Below, one piece after another: positions 12,406 to 39,013 of a DNA stretch of 64,000 bases (position 1 is the stretch's first letter; the number at the start of each line of letters is the position of its first letter). The notes under the pieces are model-generated. The model had not been told where the DNA came from. It saw only the letters and a program-made list of their open reading frames with translations, and searched no databases. The DNA is from an uncultured Gammaproteobacteria bacterium (lineage in GTDB: Bacteria; Patescibacteriota; Patescibacteriia; Magasanikbacterales; UBA922): assembly GCA_964418775.1 (NCBI GenBank), contig CAYQNA010000005.1, forward strand, positions 3,066 through 67,065. Reading direction: 5' to 3'. Made by a program: the position numbers and the translations under genes.

Positions 12406-13559
12406 ACCTATACGAATTTGAAGGTAAACAATTGTTTGCTAAACATGGTTTGAAAATACCCCGCGGTGTAGTGGTGCGTCGTGGCGATGATGTGGCGGCG
12501 AAGTATACTGAATTGGGAGTCGCGGAGGTGGTTGTTAAGGCGCAGGTTTTGTCGGGCAAGCGCGGGAAAAATAATGGCATTAAATTTTGCAACTCAGTTG
12601 CATCGGTAGTGGAGGCCTGTGAGGAATTGTTTGGTAATGCAATTCGGGGTCAACAAGTGGCCGCGATTTTGATTGAAGAAAAGTTGCAAATTGCCGAGGA
12701 ACATTATGTTTCGGTGACGTATGATACCAATCGACGCCAGCCAATGTTGATTTATTCCAGTGCTGGTGGGGTGGATATTGAGGACGTGCCGGCCGAAAAA
12801 ATCATGCGCGTGGATTTGAATATTCGCAGTGACAAGTTACCCGAAGCCCAGGCGGGTTGGGATTTTGCACAAAAATTGTACGCTGTCTTTAAAGCCGAGG
12901 ATGCGCGTGTGGCCGAAATTAATCCACTCGTAAAAACTACGAGTGGGGAGTGGGTCGCGGCTGATGCCAAGATTGCGTTGGATGATGATGCGTTTTACCG
13001 CCACAAAGAATGGGAAACGCTCGAACCGCGCACTATGCTGGGTCGTGCGCCAACGGAGCGCGAAGTAGCGGTGAAAAAAATTGACGAAGGCGAGAATTAT
13101 TATCGTGGTACTGCTGGTAAATATATTGAAATGGATGGCGATATTGGTTTGATTTTAAATGGTGGTGGGGCCAGCATTGCGAACATGGACGCGTTGTTAG
13201 CTGCGGGTTTGCAGCCAGCGAATTATACAGAATATTCGGGCAATCCACCACGCGAAAAGGTGTACCAGTTGGCGAAAATTGTGTTGTCAAAACCAGGTTT
13301 GCGCGGGCTCTGGATGTGTGGTGTGGTGGCAAATTTTACCAACATCAAAGACACATTCATGGGCATTGTCGATGCGCTCGACGAAATCAAACCGCAGTAT
13401 CCAATTGTGGTGCGCCGCGATGGGCCGGAAAGTGCGGAGGCCAAACAATTAATTTTGGAGTGTGCGGAACGCAACCACTTGAATCTCAAGTGGTTTGGCA
13501 AAGAAACATCCATGGCTGACACGGCGCAAGTTTTGGCCGAAATGGTTAATGCCCAATAA
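12402..13559 (+). CDS. sucC: ADP-forming acyl-CoA synthetase beta subunit (SucC family; candidate citryl-CoA synthetase large subunit)
   Basis: ATG at 12402; MNLYEFEGKQLFAKHGLKIP ATP-grasp N-terminus identical in style to SucC. Confidence 0.8.
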   Translation: MNLYEFEGKQLFAKHGLKIPRGVVVRRGDDVAAKYTELGVAEVVVKAQVLSGKRGKNNGIKFCNSVASVVEACEELFGNAIRGQQVAAILIEEKLQIAEEHYVSVTYDTNRRQPMLIYSSAGGVDIEDVPAEKIMRVDLNIRSDKLPEAQAGWDFAQKLYAVFKAEDARVAEINPLVKTTSGEWVAADAKIALDDDAFYRHKEWETLEPRTMLGRAPTEREVAVKKIDEGENYYRGTAGKYIEMDGDIGLILNGGGASIANMDALLAAGLQPANYTEYSGNPPREKVYQLAKIVLSKPGLRGLWMCGVVANFTNIKDTFMGIVDALDEIKPQYPIVVRRDGPESAEAKQLILECAERNHLNLKWFGKETSMADTAQVLAEMVNAQ

Positions 13560-24646: not shown

Positions 24647-25459
24647 TTAACGCAATTGACTAATAATGACCTGGTCCCATTGGGCCGCACTAGCGACACC
24701 CTCAATGACCGTTTTATTAACAAAATAGGTTGGCGTGCCGCGCACACCTAGTGCAATAGCCTCGTTTACATCGGCTTCGATTTCGGCTTGGTGACGCTGT
24801 GATTTTATGCAGGCTACAAATTTAGCCTGGTCAAGTTTAAGAGTCTCGGCCGCACTTGTCAAGCCGGCATCGTCGAGCGCTTCTCTTTTGAAGAGTAAGT
24901 GGTAATATTCCCAAAATTTGCCCTGGTCTTGGGCGCAGGCTGCGGCATTGGCAGCGGCGAGCGCGTTGGGGTGAATGCTGGTAAGGGGGAGTGCTTTGTA
25001 CACAACGCGTACGGCGGGACCGTATTTTTCTAAAACCGTGTCAAAAATCGGCTGGCTTTGGCGACAAAATGGACACTCAAAGTCAATAAAAGCAATAATT
25101 GTGACTTTGGCGCTGGCTGGACCAAGGGTTGGGTTGGTGGTTTTAATGTGGGATTTAGGGTCGCTCAATGGGGGAGGAGCATCGCCCGTTTTGGTTCCAC
25201 TCCATTCGCCAGACTGAAATTGGGCCTGTAATTTGGCTATTTCACCCGGGTTACCGTAGCGAAATTGCCACATATAATAACCTACCTGGGACAAAAAACC
25301 TAAAATCAGCAAGCTAATCACCCCAACTACAATCCAGCGCCCCCAGCGACGTGTGGGGCGGACCTGGCTAGCACCAGCCAAATTAGGAGACTGTGGCATA
25401 TAAGTGGCCCCATTATACCATAAAATTGAATTGTCAACAGTCCTTGGCTCAATTGACAT
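24647..25459 (-). CDS. DsbA-family thiol:disulfide oxidoreductase, membrane-anchored
   Basis: 270 aa; N-terminal TM, CPFC active site, thioredoxin fold features. Confidence 0.75.
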   Translation of the reverse strand: MSIEPRTVDNSILWYNGATYMPQSPNLAGASQVRPTRRWGRWIVVGVISLLILGFLSQVGYYMWQFRYGNPGEIAKLQAQFQSGEWSGTKTGDAPPPLSDPKSHIKTTNPTLGPASAKVTIIAFIDFECPFCRQSQPIFDTVLEKYGPAVRVVYKALPLTSIHPNALAAANAAACAQDQGKFWEYYHLLFKREALDDAGLTSAAETLKLDQAKFVACIKSQRHQAEIEADVNEAIALGVRGTPTYFVNKTVIEGVASAAQWDQVIISQLR

Positions 25460-30176: not shown

Positions 30177-31160
30177 ATGTCTCGTCCAGTTATCTTGTCT
30201 GGGATCCAACCAACGGGGAATTTCCACGTGGGTAATTATTTGGGTGCAGTCAAAAACTGGGTGGATTTGCAGGCCAAAGGCGAGCATGAGATGTTTATTT
30301 TTATTCCTGACTTACATTCCTTGACTGGAGATTTGTCAGCTAATGAACGTCGCGCGCTCATGACAAATGCGGCGGTTGAATTATTAGCGTGTGGAATTGA
30401 CCCACAAAAAACAACCTTGTTTGTGCAGTCACACGTACCAGAACACGCGGAGTTGGCTTGGATTTTTAACTGTGTTACGCCTGTGGCCGAGCTCGAACGC
30501 ATGACGCAATACAAAGATAAGTCCGAAAAACAGGCCAAAAACATTAATGCTGGTTTGCTCACGTACCCCGCCTTAATGGCCGCCGATATTCTGCTGTACC
30601 GTGCGACGGTGATTCCGGTTGGTATGGATCAGATTCAGCATGTGGAATTAACTCGTGATACCGCGCGTTGGTTTAATAATCGGTTTGGTGAATTTTTTGC
30701 AGAACCAAAGCACTTGTTGTCGCCAGTCCCAAAAGTAATGAGTTTGACTGAACCGACCAAGAAGATGAGCAAGAGTCATGGTGCAGATACAGTGCTTTAT
30801 TTGTCCGACGAGCCTGCCGAATTATTGCGTAAATTAAAAAAGGCCGTGACTGCGACCGAAGGCGGGGTTGGCGCGCCCGGAGTGCAGAATTTGCTTGATT
30901 TATTGATGCGCTTTGGCAGCGCAGAAGCGCACGCCCAATTTGTGGCAGCGGAAAAAGACGGGGGTATTCGCTACGGCGATCTAAAAGCTGCTGTGGCCGA
31001 AGCCGTGGGAAATTATTTTGCGGATTTCCGTGCGCGTCGTCAAGAATTGCTGGCTAACCCAGCGGAAATCGATCGTATTCTGGCTGATGGGGCCGAACGT
31101 GCCCGCGCTGTGGCGCAGAAGACAATGAGTGAGGTGAGAAAATTAGTGGGCATTCGATAA
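30177..31160 (+). CDS. trpS: Tryptophan--tRNA ligase
   Basis: 327 aa; HVGNYLGA (HIGH) and KMSKS motifs. Confidence 0.95.
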   Translation: MSRPVILSGIQPTGNFHVGNYLGAVKNWVDLQAKGEHEMFIFIPDLHSLTGDLSANERRALMTNAAVELLACGIDPQKTTLFVQSHVPEHAELAWIFNCVTPVAELERMTQYKDKSEKQAKNINAGLLTYPALMAADILLYRATVIPVGMDQIQHVELTRDTARWFNNRFGEFFAEPKHLLSPVPKVMSLTEPTKKMSKSHGADTVLYLSDEPAELLRKLKKAVTATEGGVGAPGVQNLLDLLMRFGSAEAHAQFVAAEKDGGIRYGDLKAAVAEAVGNYFADFRARRQELLANPAEIDRILADGAERARAVAQKTMSEVRKLVGIR

Positions 31161-31216
31161 TTAAAATCAAATTCTAAAAACCGCCCTTACAGACGGTTTT
31201 TTAGTGCAGAAATATT

Positions 31217-31235
31217 AATGCAACTAAGTTGCACT
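31217..31235. promoter_or_regulatory. Putative Zur box 1 (AATGCAACTAAGTTGCACT)
   Basis: 9-1-9 palindrome, one mismatch to consensus; 17 bp upstream of TTGACA (31252-31257). Confidence 0.55.
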
Positions 31236-31290
31236 TATCCACAGGCTTATATTGACAACGTAGTCCTGATAGGGTACAGTGCATATGTCT

Positions 31291-31309
31291 AATGCAACTA
31301 AGTTGCTTT
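31291..31309. promoter_or_regulatory. Putative Zur box 2 (AATGCAACTAAGTTGCTTT)
   Basis: lies just downstream of predicted -10 TACAGT (31275-31280), upstream of the His/Cys-repeat protein gene. Confidence 0.55.
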
Positions 31310-31378
31310 TGGCCCAACCGGACAGCTTCCTGAGACGCCGTCTGTCCGGTTGGTTCATATCCTTCCTGAGTATACTCT

Positions 31379-32926
31379 ATGGCCTGGCACGGCCGTTTTT
31401 TAATCATGGCAATTATTGGGCTGACCAGTTTCTGGGCGCAGTCTGTTTTGGCTTTAAATGTATTTGTCGATGCCTGTCAGCCAGTTTTTAAGGGAATTCA
31501 AATCAAACGCAATTTTTCTAATACGTGGCAAACATTAACAAACGGCTGTCGTGATGCCGGGTATGGTTTACGAGATTATACATTACAGTGCCTTTCTAGC
31601 ACGCAATACCGGGTAGAGTGGAGTGAGTGTGTGGTGCCGACAGAAACTCAAACTACGCCACAAAATACGCCTGTAGTAAGTGTGCCGGCGCCAGTGAATG
31701 TTCAGCCAATTATTCAACCAGTGGCAATGCCATCTCCAGTTGAAACGTTTGACTCGCACGCTTTAGAGGCAGTAGCGGGCACGTCAGTGAGCAATGCCTG
31801 TAGCGGACATGGCTGGGTGCATGGCGATCATTGTCATTGTGATGCGGGATATTATGCCGCTGGTTTGGAATGCCGGGCATTACCTACAACTTCTGTTCCG
31901 ACCCCTGTATCTGTTGTGGCTTCAGCCTCATCACATAATCAGCCTGTTACGCAAGTAGCTGTTCAGACTAATACGCAATCAGTGGTTGTGGCGTGTAGCG
32001 GACATGGTTGGGTTCACGGAGACCACTGCCACTGTGACGCGGGGTATTATGCCTCCGGATTACAGTGTTTAACTCTGCCTTCATCTACACCGGTTCAGTT
32101 AGTAAATGCTCAGGCGGCTGTAAAAAATACAACCCCGACTGTTAAGAATTCCGGGTCAACGACTGGAGCCGCTAAATCGACTGTCGGAAACACAAAAACA
32201 GCCCTAGAATGCAATGGCCATGGCTGGATTCATGGCGATCATTGTCATTGTGATGCGGGATATTATGCCTCTGGCACACAATGCCTGGCTTTGCCGGGCA
32301 CAGTTTTAAATAGTACTAATAACAAAACCGAATCAATTAAAAGCTCCACAAAAAGCACTATTGCCACTGCTGTAAAAAAACCATCAAATGAGATGGTTCC
32401 TGTTCAAACTACCACTCCAATTATTGAATGTAATGGCCACGGCCATTTACATGGTGACCAGTGTCACTGTGATAACGGATTTGTAGCCGAAGGTCAGAGC
32501 TGCGTAATAATGCCACAACGAGAAGCGGTCGTGTTTAAGGCCATAAATGGCCATTCTTATAAAGACGGAGATTTTTGGGTGCGACCACTAACATTGTTTG
32601 TCTATGATTTTGAGGGTAAATCAATTGTGCATTGGGAGGGTGCGCAAGGGGACTATGATGGGTTTTTAGTGTATGTCAAACCTGGGAGTTTTGCTGGTCC
32701 ACTTGACGCGTATCAGCCAATTTGGCTTAGCCGACGTCAATATTCATTTGCTTATGATTCGGCCCGTTCTGGTCAGCACACAATGTATGTTTTTCCGTAT
32801 ATTACCTTAACTAATGGGGAAGTCCGTCGTTTGGAACCAGGCGGGGTTATTTCTTGGATTCAACCTGGCCAGACTCCGAAACTTTCGGGTTGGCAGATTT
32901 TTTTGAATATTTTGAAAGGAAATTAG
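31379..32926 (+). CDS. Secreted His/Cys-rich tandem-repeat protein (putative metal/zinc-binding)
   Basis: 515 aa; signal-like N-terminus; four ~65-aa repeats each containing C(S/N)GHGWxHGDHCHCDAGYYAxGxxC; C-terminal ~130-aa domain. Confidence 0.6.
   Translation: MAWHGRFLIMAIIGLTSFWAQSVLALNVFVDACQPVFKGIQIKRNFSNTWQTLTNGCRDAGYGLRDYTLQCLSSTQYRVEWSECVVPTETQTTPQNTPVVSVPAPVNVQPIIQPVAMPSPVETFDSHALEAVAGTSVSNACSGHGWVHGDHCHCDAGYYAAGLECRALPTTSVPTPVSVVASASSHNQPVTQVAVQTNTQSVVVACSGHGWVHGDHCHCDAGYYASGLQCLTLPSSTPVQLVNAQAAVKNTTPTVKNSGSTTGAAKSTVGNTKTALECNGHGWIHGDHCHCDAGYYASGTQCLALPGTVLNSTNNKTESIKSSTKSTIATAVKKPSNEMVPVQTTTPIIECNGHGHLHGDQCHCDNGFVAEGQSCVIMPQREAVVFKAINGHSYKDGDFWVRPLTLFVYDFEGKSIVHWEGAQGDYDGFLVYVKPGSFAGPLDAYQPIWLSRRQYSFAYDSARSGQHTMYVFPYITLTNGEVRRLEPGGVISWIQPGQTPKLSGWQIFLNILKGN
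31795..32500 (+). repeat. Four coding tandem repeats (~200 bp period) of the His/Cys motif
   Basis: tagcggacatggctgggtgcatggcgatcattgtcattgtgatgcgggatattatgcc recurs with variants at ~31801, ~31999, ~32213, ~32425. Confidence 0.7.
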
Positions 32927-32951
32927 AGCTGTCCACAGGGTCCTCTTGACA

Positions 32952-32970
32952 AATGCAACCCAGTTGCATT
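32952..32970. promoter_or_regulatory. Putative Zur box 3a (AATGCAACCCAGTTGCATT)
   Basis: immediately follows TTGACA at 32945-32950. Confidence 0.55.
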
Positions 32971-32986
32971 AGAATGGCAACAGACA

Positions 32987-33005
32987 AACGCAACTAAGTT
33001 GCATT
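32987..33005. promoter_or_regulatory. Putative Zur box 3b (AACGCAACTAAGTTGCATT)
   Basis: abuts RBS GGAGGGG (33006-33012) of the downstream lipoprotein gene. Confidence 0.55.
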
Positions 33006-33016
33006 GGAGGGGTCTC

Positions 33017-34219
33017 ATGAGGGGTATTCAGATCATCGTCCTCGCCATCGTTGCCATGGTCCTCGGCGCCTGCAAGGGTGCTGTCGTGACCAAGTCAGTT
33101 GTCTGTGAGCGTGGTAACTCCGCGCTGGATGCGGACTGCGATGGACAAGACGACGACTGCGACGGCGAGACGGACGAGGGCTTCGAGCCCACGTCCACGC
33201 AGTGCGGCCAGGGTGGCTGCGAGGCCAGCGGGGAGACCCGCTGCGTCAATGGCAAGAAGGTCAACTCCTGCCGTCCGGGACAGAAGCACGACGAATCGTG
33301 CAACAATCAGGATGATGACTGTGACGGCCAGACTGACGAAAACGTCGACCGTCTATGCATGGTCTCGTGCACATCGGGTCGCGAACAATGTTCGGCCGGG
33401 CGGTGGGGCGCGTGTGACGCGCCTGGTCCTCAGGCAGAGGTCTGCGGGGACGGCATCGACAACGACTGCAACAATATCACGGACGACGGCTGTCCGCCGC
33501 CCGCACCCAAGTGCGGGGACGGCACGTGCAGCGAGCCGACTGAGTCTTGCGATTCGTGTCCGTCGGATTGTGACGTCTGTCCCACCGAGTGCGGTGATGG
33601 CACGTGTGACACGGTTCAAGGTGAAAGCAGCCAACAGTGCGTGGTCGACTGCCCCGAGCAGTGCGGCAACGGCTACTGTGGTCAAGCCGAGGACGCGGGC
33701 AACTGCAGCATCGATTGTCCCGCGACGTGCGGAGACAAAATCTGTAGTGCGACCGAGTCCGCCAAGTCCTGTCTGGACGACTGTCCCGTGACCTGCGGCG
33801 ACGGTGTCTGCACCACGTCTCAAGACGAGGACGCAGGCAGCTGCGCCAAGGACTGCGCGGACGAGTGCGGCGATAACATCTGCGGGGTGACCGAAAATAC
33901 CTGTACGTGCGACGACTGCACTGGCGCGTGCTGCGGCGACGAGGTCTGCGATGCGGACGAGGGCTACGAAACGTGCCCGTCCGACTGCAAGAAACCGACC
34001 TGTGAGGCCGACAGCGACTGCGGACCGACCCCGGTCGTGGGGCAGTTCACCCTGAACTGGTGCCACCACTGGGCCGAGCCGCGGCATTGCCACGGCGTCG
34101 TGGACTGCTCGCAGGACGCGAGCAAGTGCGACGACCCCGAGCTCGTCGGTCCGTACGCCGGCAAGACCGCGTGCCAGGAGCCCTTCCCGGGCTTCAAGGC
34201 CTGCGTCTTGATCGAATAA
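33017..34219 (+). CDS. Cys/Asp-rich repeat lipoprotein encoded by GC-rich (foreign) DNA
   Basis: ORF track 32999-34219 (TTG); likely ATG 33017; MRGIQIIVLAIVAMVLGAC lipobox; >12 repeats of C-x2-DCP-x2-CGDGxC type and DDDCDG motifs; GC and third-position G/C far above surrounding genes. Confidence 0.6.
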   Translation: MRGIQIIVLAIVAMVLGACKGAVVTKSVVCERGNSALDADCDGQDDDCDGETDEGFEPTSTQCGQGGCEASGETRCVNGKKVNSCRPGQKHDESCNNQDDDCDGQTDENVDRLCMVSCTSGREQCSAGRWGACDAPGPQAEVCGDGIDNDCNNITDDGCPPPAPKCGDGTCSEPTESCDSCPSDCDVCPTECGDGTCDTVQGESSQQCVVDCPEQCGNGYCGQAEDAGNCSIDCPATCGDKICSATESAKSCLDDCPVTCGDGVCTTSQDEDAGSCAKDCADECGDNICGVTENTCTCDDCTGACCGDEVCDADEGYETCPSDCKKPTCEADSDCGPTPVVGQFTLNWCHHWAEPRHCHGVVDCSQDASKCDDPELVGPYAGKTACQEPFPGFKACVLIE

Positions 34220-34367
34220 ACCCCAAGCGATCGCGGCGCGTTAAGCGACCGTTTGGGAAAATCAATCACGTCAGGGGTGCAACGCGCTGCATCCCTACCT
34301 ACAAATTGATAAACTTTTGGAATTGCTTGTTTCTAGAATTTTATTAATTTATTTATATTTTAGGATT

Positions 34368-34925
34368 ATGAAATTGAAATTATATTTAGGTATTATTGGT
34401 GGTTTGGTGGCCGCTACTTTTATTGGTGGTGTAACATACGCAGCCTTTAATCCTTCCAGTAACGTGGTCCCGGTTGATGTGTGTTATTCAGCAGGCAAAA
34501 ACGCAGTTACGGTGCGTCGTTTTGGGGCGGTTTATCGTTTGAACCCAGGCTGTTATGACGCAGGCCACGGTAAGCGCAATTATACATTTCAATGCGTGAG
34601 TTCCAATCGCTATCAGGTTAAATGGACTGGTTGTGGTAATTCTATGCCTGCACCAACCCCAACCCCAACCCCAACCCCAACCCCAACCCCAACCCCAACC
34701 CCAACCCCACCAGCGAAATTTGTCTGCTCATCTCACAATGATTGCAATGATAATGTTGCCCATACTGTCGACTGGTGTCATAGTCCTGGTACAGCGGATT
34801 CACATTGCCATAATGACGTCATTCAGTGTAATAGCGACAGTCAATGTCAGCCCGCCACAGGCCTAACAGGCTACAGTTGCGGCACACCATTTGGTGCCAG
34901 CGCCCCTAAATTCTGCACAAAGTAG
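34368..34925 (+). CDS. Secreted protein with conserved N-domain, (PT)n linker and Cys/His-rich C-terminus
   Basis: ORF track 34317 (TTG); ATG 34368 MKLKLYLGIIGGLVAATFIGG; N-domain ends GCYDAGHGKRNYTFQC...YQVKWTGC; PTPTPT x9; C-terminal CSSHNDCNDN...CHSPG...HCHND. Confidence 0.55.
   Translation: MKLKLYLGIIGGLVAATFIGGVTYAAFNPSSNVVPVDVCYSAGKNAVTVRRFGAVYRLNPGCYDAGHGKRNYTFQCVSSNRYQVKWTGCGNSMPAPTPTPTPTPTPTPTPTPTPPAKFVCSSHNDCNDNVAHTVDWCHSPGTADSHCHNDVIQCNSDSQCQPATGLTGYSCGTPFGASAPKFCTK
34652..34708 (+). repeat. (CCAACC)n hexanucleotide repeat encoding Pro-Thr linker
   Basis: ~9 tandem copies of ccaacc. Confidence 0.8.
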
Positions 34926-34932
34926 ATTGACA

Positions 34933-34951
34933 AACGCAACTTAATTGCGTA
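34933..34951. promoter_or_regulatory. Putative Zur box 4 (AACGCAACTTAATTGCGTA), autoregulatory
   Basis: near-palindrome sharing GCAACT-n-AnTTGC core, 13 bp upstream of the Fur-family gene start. Confidence 0.5.
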
Positions 34952-34963
34952 TAGTGGGGGAAT

Positions 34964-35404
34964 ATGAAAACTGACCATATCCTAACCACCCTTAAGGCGC
35001 GAGGCGAGCGCTTAACTCCAGCCCGTCGCTTGATTATTGAATTATTTGTGAAGCAGGACGCGCCAGTATCAGCCGATGATATTCGCGCTGCTCTGACTAA
35101 GAAAAAAGTAACGGTCAATAAAACAACCGTGTATCGTGAACTAGAGTTTTTGTTGGCGGCTGGTTTTATCCGTCCAGTATACCTCAATGACCAGCGTAAA
35201 TATTATGAGTTGGCGTTAGTGGACAGTGAACACCATCATCATGTAGTCTGTCGCGATTGCGGGCGTGTCGAAGATGTGGAGGTTGGGGGCGTGGAAAAAT
35301 TACTAGCTCCACTGGAAAAAAAGCTGGCTAAAAAAATTAAATTTGCCGATATTCGGCACAGCTTGGAGTTTTTTGGATGGTGTGGTAGGTGTCGTCGTTC
35401 TTAA
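34964..35404 (+). CDS. zur: Fur-family metalloregulator, probably Zur
   Basis: 146 aa; wHTH N-domain, HHHH and CxxC...CxxC metal sites; sits directly upstream of znuACB. Confidence 0.75.
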   Translation: MKTDHILTTLKARGERLTPARRLIIELFVKQDAPVSADDIRAALTKKKVTVNKTTVYRELEFLLAAGFIRPVYLNDQRKYYELALVDSEHHHHVVCRDCGRVEDVEVGGVEKLLAPLEKKLAKKIKFADIRHSLEFFGWCGRCRRS

Positions 35405-35424
35405 CTATTTCTGTTTTCTTTGGT

Positions 35425-36393
35425 ATGGCTAATAAATTTTTGGCCACGGTTGGAATTTTTGCAATTATTGCGGCAATTGGTTGGACTGCCACGCACCGTA
35501 CTCAAACCGTTGATAAATCGGTTGGAGTTGTTGACGACACCAAGATTACTGTTGCCGCCACTTTCTATCCCTTGGCATATTTGGCCGAGCAAGTTGGTGG
35601 GGGGCAGATTACCGTTATTAACGCGACACCAACCGGCGTTGAGCCGCACGATTATGAACCAAGCCCGCGTGAGTTAGTCAAAGTGGGCGAGGCTGATGTT
35701 TTGCTGATTAACGGTGCTGGTCTGGATCCATGGGCCGAAAAGGCCAGTGTGGATTGGCAGAAAAACGGGCAGCGTGTACTGGTAATGAGTGAAGTGTTGG
35801 AAACACTGCCAACTGCCGAGGAGCATGAGGAAGAACACGAAGACGAACATGCTCATGAACATGGTGCGTATGACCCACATTTTTGGCTTGACCCAGTGCG
35901 CGCACGCCAAATGATTGGGGTGATTCGCGACGCCTTAATTCAAGCTGATCCTACACACGCTGACCAATACCGCCAAAACGCTGTGGAGGCAGTGGGGCGC
36001 ATGTCTAAGCTCGATGATGATTACAAAACTGGTCTAGCCAGCTGCCAACAACGCGAAATTGTGGCGGCCCATGATGCGTATAATTATTTGGCCAATCGTT
36101 ATGATTTGGAATTGCACGCCATCGCGGGTCTGAGTCCCGATGCGGAGCCATCGGCGCGCCGTTTGGCTGATTTGGCAAATTTGATAAAGGCGCGTGAAAT
36201 CAGTACGATTTTTTTTGAAACGTTAGCTTCGCCAAAATTAGCAGACACATTGGCTCGTGAAACTGGGGCCAAAACTGCGGTCCTAAATCCGATTGAGGGT
36301 TTAACTGCCGAGCAAATAGTTGGTGGTAAAAATTATGATATACTAATGCGAGAGAACTTAGCGCAATTGCGTCTCGCCCTGGTATGCCAATAA
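35425..36393 (+). CDS. znuA: Zinc ABC transporter substrate-binding protein
   Basis: ORF track 35389 (GTG); ATG 35425; cluster-9 SBP with His/Glu-rich loop EEHEEEHEDEHAHEHG. Confidence 0.8.
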   Translation: MANKFLATVGIFAIIAAIGWTATHRTQTVDKSVGVVDDTKITVAATFYPLAYLAEQVGGGQITVINATPTGVEPHDYEPSPRELVKVGEADVLLINGAGLDPWAEKASVDWQKNGQRVLVMSEVLETLPTAEEHEEEHEDEHAHEHGAYDPHFWLDPVRARQMIGVIRDALIQADPTHADQYRQNAVEAVGRMSKLDDDYKTGLASCQQREIVAAHDAYNYLANRYDLELHAIAGLSPDAEPSARRLADLANLIKAREISTIFFETLASPKLADTLARETGAKTAVLNPIEGLTAEQIVGGKNYDILMRENLAQLRLALVCQ

Positions 36394-37148
36394 AAAAACA
36401 CGACAACGAAAACTGTATTCAATTTAACCACGTTGATTTTGCGTACGGCACGGCACCGGTTTTGAGTGACGTGTCGTTTTCAATTCCTGTCGGTGATTAT
36501 GTGGGTGTAATTGGTCCAAATGGCGGGGGAAAAACAACTTTGTTGAAGTTATTGCTGGGTATTTTAAAGCCTGATGCGGGCACAATTCAATTGTTTGGGC
36601 ACAGTGTGCGCGAAGCCAAAGCGCATTATGAAATCGGGTATGTACCGCAAAATGTGGTCCAAACTGATTTGGCGTTTCCGGCAACTGTGGCCGAAGTGGT
36701 GGCAAGTGGACGCACACGGCGTCGTGGTTTACTCGGTGGCATGAGCAAAAGTGATCGCACGGCCGTTGAGCAGGCGATTGAATTGACCGGTGTGCGTGAA
36801 TTTCAGGGCGCGCGTTTGGGTGAACTCTCGGGCGGGCAGCGTCAGCGTGCATTTATTGCACGCGCCCTGGCTGGTGAACCAAAAATTTTAATTCTCGACG
36901 AGCCAACTGTGGGCGTTGATATTGCTTCGGTCACGCAGTTCAACCGTGTGCTTGATGAATTAAATGCGAGCGGACTCACGATTTTACTGGTGTCGCACGA
37001 TGTTGATGCAGTGGCCACGCAAGTAAAACACGTTTTGTGCATTAACAAGGAGGTCGTGTGTCATGTGGCTTCGCGTCAATTTGATAAAGCGGGCACACTG
37101 CGTGATTTGTATGGCGGCGCGCGCCAGCCGGTTGCACATGACCACTAG
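36384..37148 (+). CDS. znuC: Zinc ABC transporter ATP-binding protein
   Basis: 254 aa; Walker A GPNGGGKTT, LSGGQRQR signature, Walker B ILILDEP. Confidence 0.85.
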   Translation: MPIKKHDNENCIQFNHVDFAYGTAPVLSDVSFSIPVGDYVGVIGPNGGGKTTLLKLLLGILKPDAGTIQLFGHSVREAKAHYEIGYVPQNVVQTDLAFPATVAEVVASGRTRRRGLLGGMSKSDRTAVEQAIELTGVREFQGARLGELSGGQRQRAFIARALAGEPKILILDEPTVGVDIASVTQFNRVLDELNASGLTILLVSHDVDAVATQVKHVLCINKEVVCHVASRQFDKAGTLRDLYGGARQPVAHDH

Positions 37149-37149
37149 T

Positions 37150-38208
37150 ATGACTGAAATTTCGACCACAACCGAGGCTCCGACTCTTGACCAAACGTAT
37201 GTTCGGGGCAAGGTTTTAAAAGTCGAGAGCGCAAACACGGACACTGAATTTGGCGAGCCGATTGTAACCCAGCAAATTCGTATCAAAATCACGACTGGTA
37301 ATGAAATCGGTAAAGAAATGGTGGTGGAATATCAAGTCCGTGGCAGTGGCGCGAGCGAGCGCACATTGCACGAAGGGCAGCCCGTGGTCGTTAGTCGGAC
37401 CGCAATTCCAGGTGGTGAAATTACGTATGCGATTACCGAGCCATTGCGGTTGCCTGTGATTGGGTGGACGTTGGCTGGGTTTTTTGTTTTAACGATTTTG
37501 TTTGCGGGCCGCCGCGGACTTATGGCCTTTGTGGGGCTCGCGGTTACTGCCGCGATTATCGCATGGTATGTGGTACCGCAAATTACCACTGGCGCGAATC
37601 CATTTGTGGTGAGTCTGGTGGCCACGGCCGCAATTGCGTGCACATCATTATTTTTAGCGCATGGATTTAATCGCCGCACAGCCGTGGCATTTGTGAGTAT
37701 TTTAATTACAATTGTGCTCGCGATTGGTTTGACTGAGTGGGTGGTGGCCGCTGCGCATTTAACAGGCCTCGGAAGTGAGGAGTCGTATTATTTGCAATTT
37801 GCGCCAACCGCCACAATTAATTTACGCGGACTGTTACTTGGCGGTATAATAATTGGAGTGCTGGGCGTGCTCGATGATGTGGCCACGGCGCAAACCGCCG
37901 CGGTCGCAGAGTTAAAGGCCGCGAATAAATCATTTGCGTGGCGCGAATTGTATCGTCGCGGCAGTGTGGTGGGGCGCGAGCACATCACCTCGCTCGTGAA
38001 TACGCTTGTGTTGGCCTATGTGGGTGCGTCGTTTCCATTACTACTATTGTTTTCAGCCTACAGCACACCATGGTGGGTGACGCTCAACACCGAATTACTG
38101 ACCGAAGAAGTCGTGCGCACATTAGTCGGTAGTATGGCGCTGGTGGCGGCCGTGCCAATTACAACCGCGCTCGCGGCTTGGGTGTTTACCCGCTATCCTG
38201 AAACATAA
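37150..38208 (+). CDS. YibE/F-like polytopic membrane protein inserted between znuC and znuB
   Basis: ORF track 37063; ATG 37150 MTEISTTTE; N-terminal soluble ~100 aa then ~8 TM helices. Confidence 0.45.
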   Translation: MTEISTTTEAPTLDQTYVRGKVLKVESANTDTEFGEPIVTQQIRIKITTGNEIGKEMVVEYQVRGSGASERTLHEGQPVVVSRTAIPGGEITYAITEPLRLPVIGWTLAGFFVLTILFAGRRGLMAFVGLAVTAAIIAWYVVPQITTGANPFVVSLVATAAIACTSLFLAHGFNRRTAVAFVSILITIVLAIGLTEWVVAAAHLTGLGSEESYYLQFAPTATINLRGLLLGGIIIGVLGVLDDVATAQTAAVAELKAANKSFAWRELYRRGSVVGREHITSLVNTLVLAYVGASFPLLLLFSAYSTPWWVTLNTELLTEEVVRTLVGSMALVAAVPITTALAAWVFTRYPET

Positions 38209-38209
38209 T

Positions 38210-39013
38210 ATGCTCGAGATTTTCCAATATGACTTCATGAACCGCGCACTTGTCGCGGGTTTGGCTGTCGCGATTGTGGCGCCGTTGGTTGGTTTGTTTT
38301 TGGTTGTGCGCCGCTATTCATATTTGGCCGACACGTTGGCTCATGTCTCGCTCGTGGGTGTGGCTGTAGCAGTCCTCGGCGGTTTTAGTCCTGTTCTGGC
38401 TGCCACTGTGGCGGCAATTGCTGCTGGTGGTGGGATCGAAGCGCTGCGCCGCAATCAGCGTGTATTTAGTGAGTCAGTCCTCGCAGTTTTTCTCTCGGGC
38501 AGTTTGGCCCTCGCTGTGGTGCTCATGAGCGTGGGTAAGCGTTTACACCAAGATTTGTTTTCGTATTTGTTTGGCAGTATTACAACCGTAACGCCAACCG
38601 AGGTTTGGACGATCGCGATTGTCGCAGGCGTGGTCGCACTCACGGTTTTAATTGTGTTCAAAGAATTGTTTCTCCTAACACTCCACGAGGAATTGGCTCA
38701 GGCCGAGGGCTTGCGCGTACGTGTGTATTCGGTCTTGCTCATGGTTTTGTCTGCCGTCACAATTGCAGTGGCCATGCGTGTGGTGGGGAGTTTGCTCGTG
38801 GGCGCGCTCATGGTTATTCCTGTACTCACAGCCGCGCAAATCGCGCGCAGTTTTTGGGCTACCGCAATTTGGTCTGTGTTCCTCTCAGTCCTAGCAACAT
38901 TTCTAGGCCTTATTGGTTCATTTTATTTTGATATTCCGAGCGGCGCGTCAATTGTTGTCGCCGCACTTTTAATTCTGGTAGCCACATTTGTGTGCATGCC
39001 CCAACGTCGTTAA
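38210..39013 (+). CDS. znuB: Zinc ABC transporter permease (ABC-3 family)
   Basis: 267 aa; ABC-3 permease topology and conserved mid-protein motifs. Confidence 0.85.
   Translation: MLEIFQYDFMNRALVAGLAVAIVAPLVGLFLVVRRYSYLADTLAHVSLVGVAVAVLGGFSPVLAATVAAIAAGGGIEALRRNQRVFSESVLAVFLSGSLALAVVLMSVGKRLHQDLFSYLFGSITTVTPTEVWTIAIVAGVVALTVLIVFKELFLLTLHEELAQAEGLRVRVYSVLLMVLSAVTIAVAMRVVGSLLVGALMVIPVLTAAQIARSFWATAIWSVFLSVLATFLGLIGSFYFDIPSGASIVVAALLILVATFVCMPQRR

Follow-up and report, generated by a model that had tools for sequence, protein, structure and literature searches.

Histidine-decorated EGF-like modules in a predicted Zur-regulon protein of a Magasanikbacteria-type genome and their association with zinc acquisition

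The known accessory proteins for capture of extracellular zinc, such as ZinT, the Pht proteins and the fungal zincophores, belong to a few structurally unrelated families that come mostly from pathogens. In streptococci, PhtA, PhtB, PhtD and PhtE are exposed at the surface and carry several short histidine motifs, each of which is proposed to bind one Zn2+; zinc is reportedly transferred from PhtD to AdcAII. Among fungi, Candida albicans secretes the zincophore Pra1, which is coupled to the ZIP transporter Zrt1, and ZIP transporters of the LIV-1 type have extracellular His-rich domains. The subject of the present analysis is ORF A, an open reading frame (ORF) upstream of zur and the znu genes in a 64,000-nt stretch of contig CAYQNA010000005.1 (the window). 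Its product is very probably an exported protein of a Zur regulon that is equipped with EGF-like modules. Direct binding of metal by these modules, as judged from sequence, is probable, since their His and Asp residues are conserved, their genes are associated with zinc genes, and the module is found fused to ZIP transporters.

Like the Pht proteins, ORF A combines repeated His motifs, predicted control by a zinc repressor and a gene lying beside that of the extracellular binding protein of a zinc ABC importer. The Pht proteins differ in their HxxHxH motif, their unrelated fold without cysteines, their regulator (AdcR, of the MarR family) and the phyla in which they occur. Membership of the Pht family was rejected, as no Pht-family Pfam profile matched at E ≤ 1 and the module motif H-x3-H-x2-H-x-H is embedded in C-x-C. 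ZinT and the ZinT-like domain of AdcA offer a second parallel, being Zur-regulated, extracytoplasmic zinc-binding accessories that assist ZnuA or AdcA. ZinT, however, is a single lipocalin-like domain with one site, and is related to ORF A neither in sequence nor in fold. Membership of the ZinT/AdcA C-terminal family was also rejected: there was no match in Pfam or NCBIfam, and the folds found were EGF-like and fibronectin-type-III-like (FN3-like).

ORF A (31379..32926, forward strand; coordinates checked and as given earlier) encodes 515 residues. An identical protein is held at NCBI without a name (P0001; here and below, P numbers label proteins or cluster representatives, and L numbers contigs or loci, of the present analysis). 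Four modules, beginning at residues 141, 206, 278 and 351, follow the pattern C-[SN]-G-H-G-[WH]-[VIL]-H-G-D-[HQ]-C-H-C-D-[AN]-G-[YF]-x7-C. A preliminary description of this DNA had recognised four repeats of about 65 residues. The four Cys/His modules stand, spaced by 65, 72 and 73 residues, but the repeating unit proved to be a core of only about 27 residues set on variable linkers. The cores are 54–86% identical in protein and 55–82% in DNA sequence, the linkers are rich in Pro, Thr, Ser, Gln and Val and unrelated to one another, and Tandem Repeats Finder detected no DNA tandem array across the modules. The modules hold 16 of the 22 histidines of the protein and four cysteines each; the remaining four of the 20 cysteines (C33, C57, C71 and C84) lie in the N-terminal domain.

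The N-terminus, MAWHGRFLIMAIIGLTSFWAQSVLA followed by LN, resembles a Sec signal with a hydrophobic helix. A-x-A-type sites also stand just ahead of the first domain in orthologues of ORF A, and together with the helix predicted by AlphaFold2 they support the secretion that had been proposed from the signal-like N-terminus. The AlphaFold2 model of the full-length protein, built on an alignment of 11 sequences, has a mean predicted local distance difference test score (pLDDT) of 64.8. It consists of a helix at residues 3–24, a small β-domain at 25–83 (pLDDT 73–94), the four modules as two β-hairpins each (pLDDT 81–89), disordered linkers (pLDDT below 50) and a C-terminal β-sandwich at 385–484. 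When this model was compared with the Protein Data Bank (PDB) by Foldseek, FN3 domains matched the C-terminal sandwich (E about 1e-3, template modelling score on the target 0.5–0.67); it alone was reported, the modules giving no match in that search. The N-terminal domain is common to ORF A, ORF C and other surface proteins of Magasanikbacteria type (P0012; L001, 9014..9973). NCBIfam holds no family for ORF A, ORF B or the myxobacterial module lipoproteins described below.

The Pfam profile EGF_Teneurin (PF23106) matched ORF A at four stretches with 30.1 bits against a gathering cut-off of 24.3 (E = 5e-7). With all four stretches covered by a match above the gathering score, the repeats are not due to chance. 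EGF_TEN (PF25024) reached 60.7 bits, slightly under its cut-off of 65. A model of module 1 on its own, built on 50 aligned modules, had a pLDDT of 91.8 and showed a short helix and strands at 8–11, 14–17, 21–24 and 27–30, which form the two hairpins (major and minor sheet) of the EGF fold. All nine Foldseek matches of this model were EGF modules (teneurin-3, integrin beta-2, reelin, AMA4); as the domain comprises no more than 34 residues, each score is weak when taken alone. EGF modules of selectin and ADAM22 were further structural neighbours. Sequence searches of the PDB with ORF A returned only insignificant or weak EGF matches, and no solved relative.

Canonical EGF domains have six cysteines paired in three disulfides (C1–C3, C2–C4, C5–C6). 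The four of the module align, with E-selectin as the example, to C2, C4, C5 and C6; the equivalent of C1 is absent and a hydrophobic Val, Leu or Ile takes the place of C3. Exactly one disulfide pair is thus lost, and the module is therefore a reduced EGF-like variant rather than a canonical member, in which the C2–C4 and C5–C6 disulfides would be retained. A gene for a DsbA-like protein of thioredoxin fold, at 24647..25459 on the reverse strand of the window, fits the formation of disulfides outside the cytoplasm, which the many exported Cys-rich products of the ORF A–C locus would need.

The four cysteines could alternatively form a Cys4 or Cys/His structural zinc knuckle, in which zinc would serve folding and not scavenging. 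The arrangement C-x10-C-x-C-x10-C with adjacent histidines is superficially like small zinc-binding motifs. Yet the proteins are exported or lipoproteins, the spacing and flanks of the cysteines fit C2, C4, C5 and C6 of EGF, the structural neighbours are all disulfide-bonded EGF modules, and it would be paradoxical for zinc starvation to induce a protein that requires zinc; a structural knuckle is very improbable. As the fold of the module, a zinc ribbon or knuckle was rejected, since none was present among the structural neighbours and the EGF matches were unanimous. The preliminary description, which took the repeats for metal-binding modules, regarded a non-metal-binding fold as telling against that idea. 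The predicted structure of one repeat, EGF-like and not a classical zinc fold, formally touches this point; the idea is not counted as refuted because the His decoration is specific to this EGF subfamily.

The EGF domains of teneurins and tenascins (PF23106, PF25024) share with the module the fold and the skeleton C-x-G-H-G ... C-x-C-D-x-G-Y ... C. They have six cysteines instead of four, and the residues His 8, 11 and 13 and Asp 10 and 15 that are conserved in the module are nearly absent from them. Their context also differs, being animal extracellular matrix and signalling as against bacterial zinc starvation. Calcium-binding EGF (cbEGF) domains set a precedent for an EGF module as a dedicated metal site. 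They bind Ca2+ through an N-terminal D-x-D/N-E-C segment before C1, whereas the candidate ligands of the module are histidines on the first hairpin. The modules were not assigned to cbEGF, as they begin at the equivalent of C2 and have no calcium-ligand segment; Pfam cEGF scored 11.1 bits against 26.6.

Conservation was counted over 90 modules from 33 proteins found with the ORF A protein as query. Histidine was most frequent at position 8 (84 modules), followed by positions 4 (80), 13 (77) and 11 (69); aspartate was found at positions 15 (85 modules) and 10 (79); and position 6 was His or Glu in 67. Substitutes at these positions were often other residues of ligand type, such as Asp at 13 (P0002) or Glu at 6. 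The conservation of His 8, 11 and 13 was close to that of the cysteines. Ordinary EGF repeats served for comparison: in 393 of them, drawn from 33 Cys-rich multi-EGF proteins also reached by the module profile, the frequency of His at these positions was 0%, 2% and 2%, respectively. In the DSSP register of the module 1 model, the strand G-W-V-H pairs with H-C-H-C over a two-residue G-D turn. Positions 6, 8, 11 and 13 ([H/E/W], H, H, H) would then line up on the same exposed side of the first hairpin; the opposite side, turned to the core, would carry the two cysteines and the hydrophobic residue of position 7.

The second body of evidence concerns regulation. A palindromic box, ATGCAAC-N3-GTTGCAT, recurs in the promoters of the locus, and its consensus in the window is identical to the 17-bp ZUR site ATGCAACNNNGTTGCAT that was predicted in two Desulfovibrio genomes for znuABC-zur only (2004, PMC545781, section 'Zinc', Table 5). 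As in Desulfovibrio, the box precedes zur/znu; the differences are that it is found here in a genome of Patescibacteria type and in Myxococcota, and that it has new predicted targets. Two boxes upstream of ORF A, at 31218 and 31292, had been taken for Zur-type sites at the outset; this is borne out by their match to the predicted consensus and by the occurrence of the box in the zur-znuA promoter. With at most one mismatch, the window contains five copies of the 15-nt core TGCAAC-N3-GTTGCA where 0.48 would be expected, a number reached in 0 of 100 shuffles; the 17-mer revealed one further, more degenerate copy in the zur promoter (34934). Within 31100–35000, the three best matches to a σ70-like promoter precede ORF A, ORF B and the Fur-family gene. 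The box fills the −35/−10 spacer in the ORF B and zur promoters, and two boxes flank the ORF A promoter. ORF A thus has, in its promoter region, an operator in common with the zur/znu promoter.

A perfect core, TGCAACTCAGTTGCA, also lies at 12588..12602, inside the coding sequence of an ATP-grasp protein (succinyl-CoA-synthetase-beta-like). With about 0.004 perfect cores expected in 64 kb (one per 4^12 positions), it may represent either a genuine site within the gene or a chance occurrence. It was set aside as a regulon member as it lies within a coding gene, even though a perfect core is unexpected by chance.

The nature of the operator bears on the metal. Binding of another divalent ion (Ni, Co, Cu or Mn), under a Fur-family regulator that is not zinc-specific, is conceivable inasmuch as His-rich sites are promiscuous, COG0523 and the Fur family include non-zinc members, and proteins of the ZnuA family (cluster A-I) carry Mn or Fe in some systems. 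It is nevertheless improbable, given that the ZnuA of the window carries an acidic, His-rich loop, a typical trait of ZnuA proteins specific for zinc, that the operator is of the ZUR-type consensus defined on znuABC-zur, and that the transporters fused to modules are of the ZIP family.

The placement of the operator, like the gene order A/B/(C)-zur-znuA-znuC-znuB, is kept at the orthologous loci L007, L003 and L001. In L007, the ORF A orthologue is 36% identical over its full length and the order RNase J, TrpRS, A, B, C, zur is that of the window; two boxes precede A, two precede B and one precedes zur (13816). L007 (CAYYQC010000013.1) is a metagenome-assembled genome (MAG) contig labelled 'uncultured Gammaproteobacteria bacterium'. 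The label is probably wrong, because the contig is syntenic gene for gene with the window, whose UvrA is Magasanikbacteria-like: it is 75% identical to a Candidatus Magasanikbacteria protein, its best named matches being from Magasanikbacteria or Patescibacteria. The affiliation with Patescibacteria that the preliminary description presumed is therefore right. In L003, one box lies ahead of the ORF A orthologue (P0002, 39% identity) and two lie ahead of the gene that follows it. In L001/L002, the ORF A homologue (P0003, 28% identity) has six modules, and the order is B-homologue, a 319-residue protein, A-homologue and zur-znuA-znuC-znuB-yibEF, with two boxes ahead of B and one in the zur promoter (12160). 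The 319-residue protein has an N-terminal domain of ORF A type, Ig-like domains and one module. Modules 1–3 are the best-conserved part of the orthologues (63–78% identity), compared with 41–48% for module 4, 47% for the N-terminal domain, 34% for the C-terminal domain and 14–33% for the linkers.

The preliminary description looked to Patescibacteria genomes for further copies of the repeat; the module turned out to be mainly a feature of Myxococcota. One genome per GTDB species was scanned, which gave 40 loci. With the exception of L007 and a few MAGs whose labels are different or non-specific, these belong to Myxococcota and allies, among them Myxococcus, Corallococcus, Archangium, Nannocystis, Enhygromyxa, Labilithrix, Sandaracinaceae, Polyangiaceae and Bradymonadales. 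Nearly all of the encoded module proteins begin with a lipoprotein signal. The neighbourhoods were searched for zinc genes by tblastn, the queries being Zur, ZnuA/B and COG0523. At half of the species loci (20/40), a COG0523, Fur-family or ZnuA gene was present within 10 kb, often adjacent (0–400 nt), compared with none at nine HAF-type loci (about 170 kb), which provide a rough internal baseline. In L029, the gene of a 142-residue module lipoprotein lies between znuA and znuC-znuB; in L006 and L034, the module gene is flanked by a divergent Fur-family gene and a COG0523 gene, one to either side. When one mismatch at most was allowed, the box occurred 29 times over the 658 kb of 41 Myxococcota-type loci, against 1.3 ± 1.1 expected, an enrichment of about 22-fold; it also precedes COG0523 genes.

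The box further stands at a fixed distance, about 92 nt, upstream of seven Myxococcaceae-type module genes of HAF/DUF3466 type, mostly from Myxococcus isolates, with no zinc genes nearby. These loci (L004, L008, L009, L011, L012, L014 and L017) encode two to six modules by a strict motif count. Because a ZUR-type box lies at a fixed distance from the start codon, the large subgroup of the 'DUF3466 family' that has modules is predicted to belong to the myxobacterial Zur regulon.

Fifty modules were combined into a profile, which on searching 1.84 billion representative proteins matched 642 at E ≤ 1e-3, 99 of them at E ≤ 1e-10. Many are proteins of 80–300 residues that consist of one to three modules and His/Asp/Glu-rich tracts. 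Their public names are 'hypothetical protein', 'lipoprotein', 'EGF-like domain-containing protein' and 'DUF3466 family protein'. Three clusters of ZIP zinc transporters (P0088, P0102 and P0118; Pfam Zip, 68–108 bits) bear modules in an N-terminal extension, accompanied in P0088 and P0102 by long His/Asp/Glu tracts. P0102, which includes the green alga Tetraselmis striata, is the sole ZIP cluster with a named member, and this member is eukaryotic. P0057 is from the protist Sphaeroforma arctica. A group of myxobacterial lipoproteins of about 290 residues (for example P0014, P0016, P0031 and P0162) has one module at either end of a central domain of about 200 residues with the conserved pattern C-G-x-C ... 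G-C-x-x-H-x-D-H-F-H-C. This central domain, which has no Pfam match and whose genes often lie beside COG0523, may be another metal site.

The ZIP fusions recall Pra1/Zrt1 and the ectodomains of LIV-1 ZIPs in that a zinc-capturing part is genetically coupled to an importer; the sequences and folds of those systems are unrelated to the module and they are eukaryotic only. The hand-off of zinc from PhtD to AdcAII would be the closest functional analogy for ORF A, and the ZIP fusions make the same point in cis. The link between module and zinc proposed in the preliminary description is thus supported from three sides: the synteny and operators of the related genomes, the zinc neighbours and operator in Myxococcota, and the fusions.

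ORF A could instead be a zinc-regulated surface or adhesion protein that binds no metal, Zur coupling attachment or envelope remodelling to zinc starvation, with the EGF-like and FN3-like domains attaching an episymbiont of the candidate phyla radiation (CPR) to its host cell or to a matrix. EGF-like, FN3-like and Ig-like domains on flexible linkers make a typical adhesin architecture, proteins that do not bind metal occur in Zur regulons, and the Myxococcus versions are fused to HAF/DUF3466 repeats, whose function is unknown. Such a role would, however, leave unexplained the module on ZIP transporters and the tiny lipoproteins of module and His tract inside znu or COG0523 operons. It is also hard to square with six His/Asp positions that are conserved across phyla about like the cysteines and are near-absent from ordinary EGF. 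It is accordingly considered unlikely.

The favoured reading, held as a whole chain with moderate confidence, is that ORF A encodes a Zur-repressed exported protein whose His-modules capture Zn2+ outside the cell for ZnuA or deliver it to ZnuA. When zinc suffices, Zur would repress ORF A. When zinc is scarce, Zur would leave the ATGCAAC-N3-GTTGCAT operators at three promoters, and three units would be derepressed, namely ORF A, an ORF B unit in which ORF C is probably included, and zur-znuA-znuC-yibEF-znuB. The ORF A product would then be made and exported by the Sec route. Its working parts would be the four EGF-like modules, converted into metal sites by the His and Asp residues at positions 4, 8, 10, 11, 13 and 15. 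The four His faces would capture extracellular Zn2+, the long flexible linkers enlarging the capture radius, and the captured Zn2+ would either raise the local concentration available to ZnuA or be passed on to it.

The last step invites a different outcome. The modules might bind zinc for sequestration or buffering and not for delivery to ZnuA, as a surface store, as protection from zinc excess, or as a means of depriving a host or competitor of zinc. This reading would draw on the same evidence of metal binding, and competition for metals is plausible for myxobacteria, which are predators, and for CPR epibionts. Predicted repression by Zur, however, implies expression when zinc is scarce, which is at odds with detoxification, and placement in uptake operons and on ZIP importers points to acquisition. 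Sequestration is judged a little less likely even than a role in adhesion.

Several points weigh against the proposed chain from Zur to ZnuA. The identity of the regulator is deduced from the operon context and a predicted consensus, and Zur regulons also include proteins that do not bind zinc. The geometry of the putative His face is read from the DSSP strand register only. Position 6 is Trp, not His or Glu, in modules 1–3 of ORF A, and position 11 is Gln in module 4; the sites may be three-coordinate, or may be completed by His4, Asp10 or water. EGF domains are not known to bind zinc, and the ion taken up by the recognised metal-binding variant of EGF is Ca2+, at another site. In about one third of the Myxococcota loci, zinc neighbours are absent and so is any box at a limit of one mismatch; several of these loci are short contigs.

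The features of the locus are collected in Table 1.

Table 1. Features of the ORF A–znu region, in positions of the window
Feature	Position	Strand	Basis or remark
Zur box A1, ATGCAACTAAGTTGCAC	31218-31234	.	Upstream of ORF A −35; matches predicted Desulfovibrio ZUR consensus
ORF A promoter, σ70-like, TTGACA-17-TACAGT, 10/12 matches	31252..31280	+	Promoter scan 31100-35000
Zur box A2, ATGCAACTAAGTTGCTT	31292-31308	.	Just downstream of ORF A −10, near expected transcription start
ORF A, 515-aa exported mosaic protein	31379..32926	+	ORF call and sequence
Signal-peptide-like N-terminus, aa 1-26, ends SVLA before LN	31379..31456	+	Sequence; AlphaFold2 helix 3-24; orthologue A-x-A sites
N-terminal 4-Cys β-domain, aa 27-85	31457..31633	+	pLDDT 73-94; 36% identity to ORF C, E 7e-13
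His-decorated EGF-like module 1, aa 141-167, CSGHGWVHGDHCHCDAGYYAAGLEC	31799..31879	+	Pfam, sequence, AlphaFold2, Foldseek
His-decorated EGF-like module 2, aa 206-232, CSGHGWVHGDHCHCDAGYYASGLQC	31994..32074	+	Pfam, sequence, AlphaFold2
His-decorated EGF-like module 3, aa 278-304, CNGHGWIHGDHCHCDAGYYASGTQC	32210..32290	+	Pfam, sequence, AlphaFold2
His-decorated EGF-like module 4, aa 351-377, CNGHGHLHGDQCHCDNGFVAEGQSC; His at position 6, Gln at 11	32429..32509	+	Pfam, sequence, AlphaFold2
C-terminal β-sandwich, fibronectin-type-III-like, aa 380-490	32516..32848	+	pLDDT 74-89; Foldseek FN3 matches
ORF B promoter, TTGACA-18-TAGAAT, 11/12	32946..32975	+	Zur box B1 (32953-32969) in spacer
Zur box B2, ACGCAACTAAGTTGCAT	32988..33004	.	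Between promoter and ORF B start
ORF B, 400-aa Asp/Cys-rich lipoprotein-like protein, C-terminal WCH...HCH domain	33017..34219	+	Sequence; two boxes; homologues in L001, L003, L007
ORF C, 185-aa exported protein	34368..34925	+	ORF A N-domain, (PT)n linker and ORF B C-terminal Cys/His domain; L007 homologue
zur promoter, TTGACA-17-TATAGT, 11/12	34927..34955	+	Zur box ACGCAACTTAATTGCGT (34934-34950) in spacer
Fur-family regulator, assigned Zur (CxxC...CxxC, HHHH), overlaps znuA	34964..35404	+	Pfam FUR 85.7 bits; operon context
ZnuA zinc-binding protein, His/Glu-rich loop EEHEEEHEDEHAHEHG	35389..36393	+	Pfam ZnuA 275 bits; sequence
ZnuC-like ABC ATPase	36384..37148	+	Annotation of operon
YibE/F-family membrane protein in znu operon; true start probably downstream of 37063	37063..38208	+	Also next to znuB in L001
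ZnuB-like ABC-3 permease	38210..39013	+	Annotation of operon

The exported products of ORF A, ORF B and ORF C share domains combinatorially. The (PT)n linker of ORF C is encoded by 9.5 copies of CCAACC. The C-terminal domains of ORF B (about 33990..34219) and ORF C are only weakly similar in pairwise comparison (E = 0.09); their relation was accepted because the L007 homologues make it obvious. This Cys/His domain with WCH...HCH may be a second candidate metal-binding module of the same regulon. ORF B has no Pfam or NCBIfam match; its repeats CDGxDDDCDGxTDE and CGDGxC...DC recall myxobacterial Cys-rich repeats. Its guanine-plus-cytosine (GC) content is 0.64, and 0.79 at third codon positions (GC3), against a GC3 of 0.37–0.48 in the neighbouring genes. 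The ORF B homologues at L001 7502..8809, L007 11612..12874 and L003 2140..3312 likewise have GC3 values of 0.82, 0.59 and 0.63, their neighbours 0.25–0.41. A synonymous-site bias confined to one gene is thus kept across diverged genomes, and recent transfer alone therefore does not explain ORF B. The YibE/F gene lies between znuC and znuB in the window and after znuB in L001 (15407..16543); its position in or attached to the znu operon of two genomes suggests an unrecognised role in zinc uptake.

The EGF fold is already known, and so is the class of Zur-controlled extracellular zinc-binding accessory proteins. In the literature, no paper was found on the module motif, on EGF-like domains in Zur regulons, on ZIP–EGF fusions or on zinc regulation in Patescibacteria. 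The His-decorated four-cysteine EGF variant appears to be undescribed, as does the connection that ties it to zinc acquisition across three widely differing lineages. A wider proposal, held with about equal belief and doubt, is that the module is an unrecognised, cross-kingdom, extracellular Zn2+-binding domain derived from EGF. Its users would be Myxococcota and Magasanikbacteria, in their Zur regulons, and green algae and other protists, in ZIP ectodomains, with ORF A, ORF B and ORF C as a Zur-controlled zinc-harvesting apparatus of a reduced-genome bacterium. If the modules bind zinc, a compact, disulfide-stabilised domain family would join the class of extracellular zinc-capture proteins, with a distribution spanning myxobacteria, CPR bacteria and eukaryotic algae. 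A function would be provided for hundreds of 'hypothetical lipoproteins', 'EGF-like domain-containing' and 'DUF3466 family' proteins, and the Zur operator predicted in 2004 in two Desulfovibrio genomes would be extended to two further phyla. It would also show that an uncultured bacterium with a reduced genome invests in the acquisition of metal.

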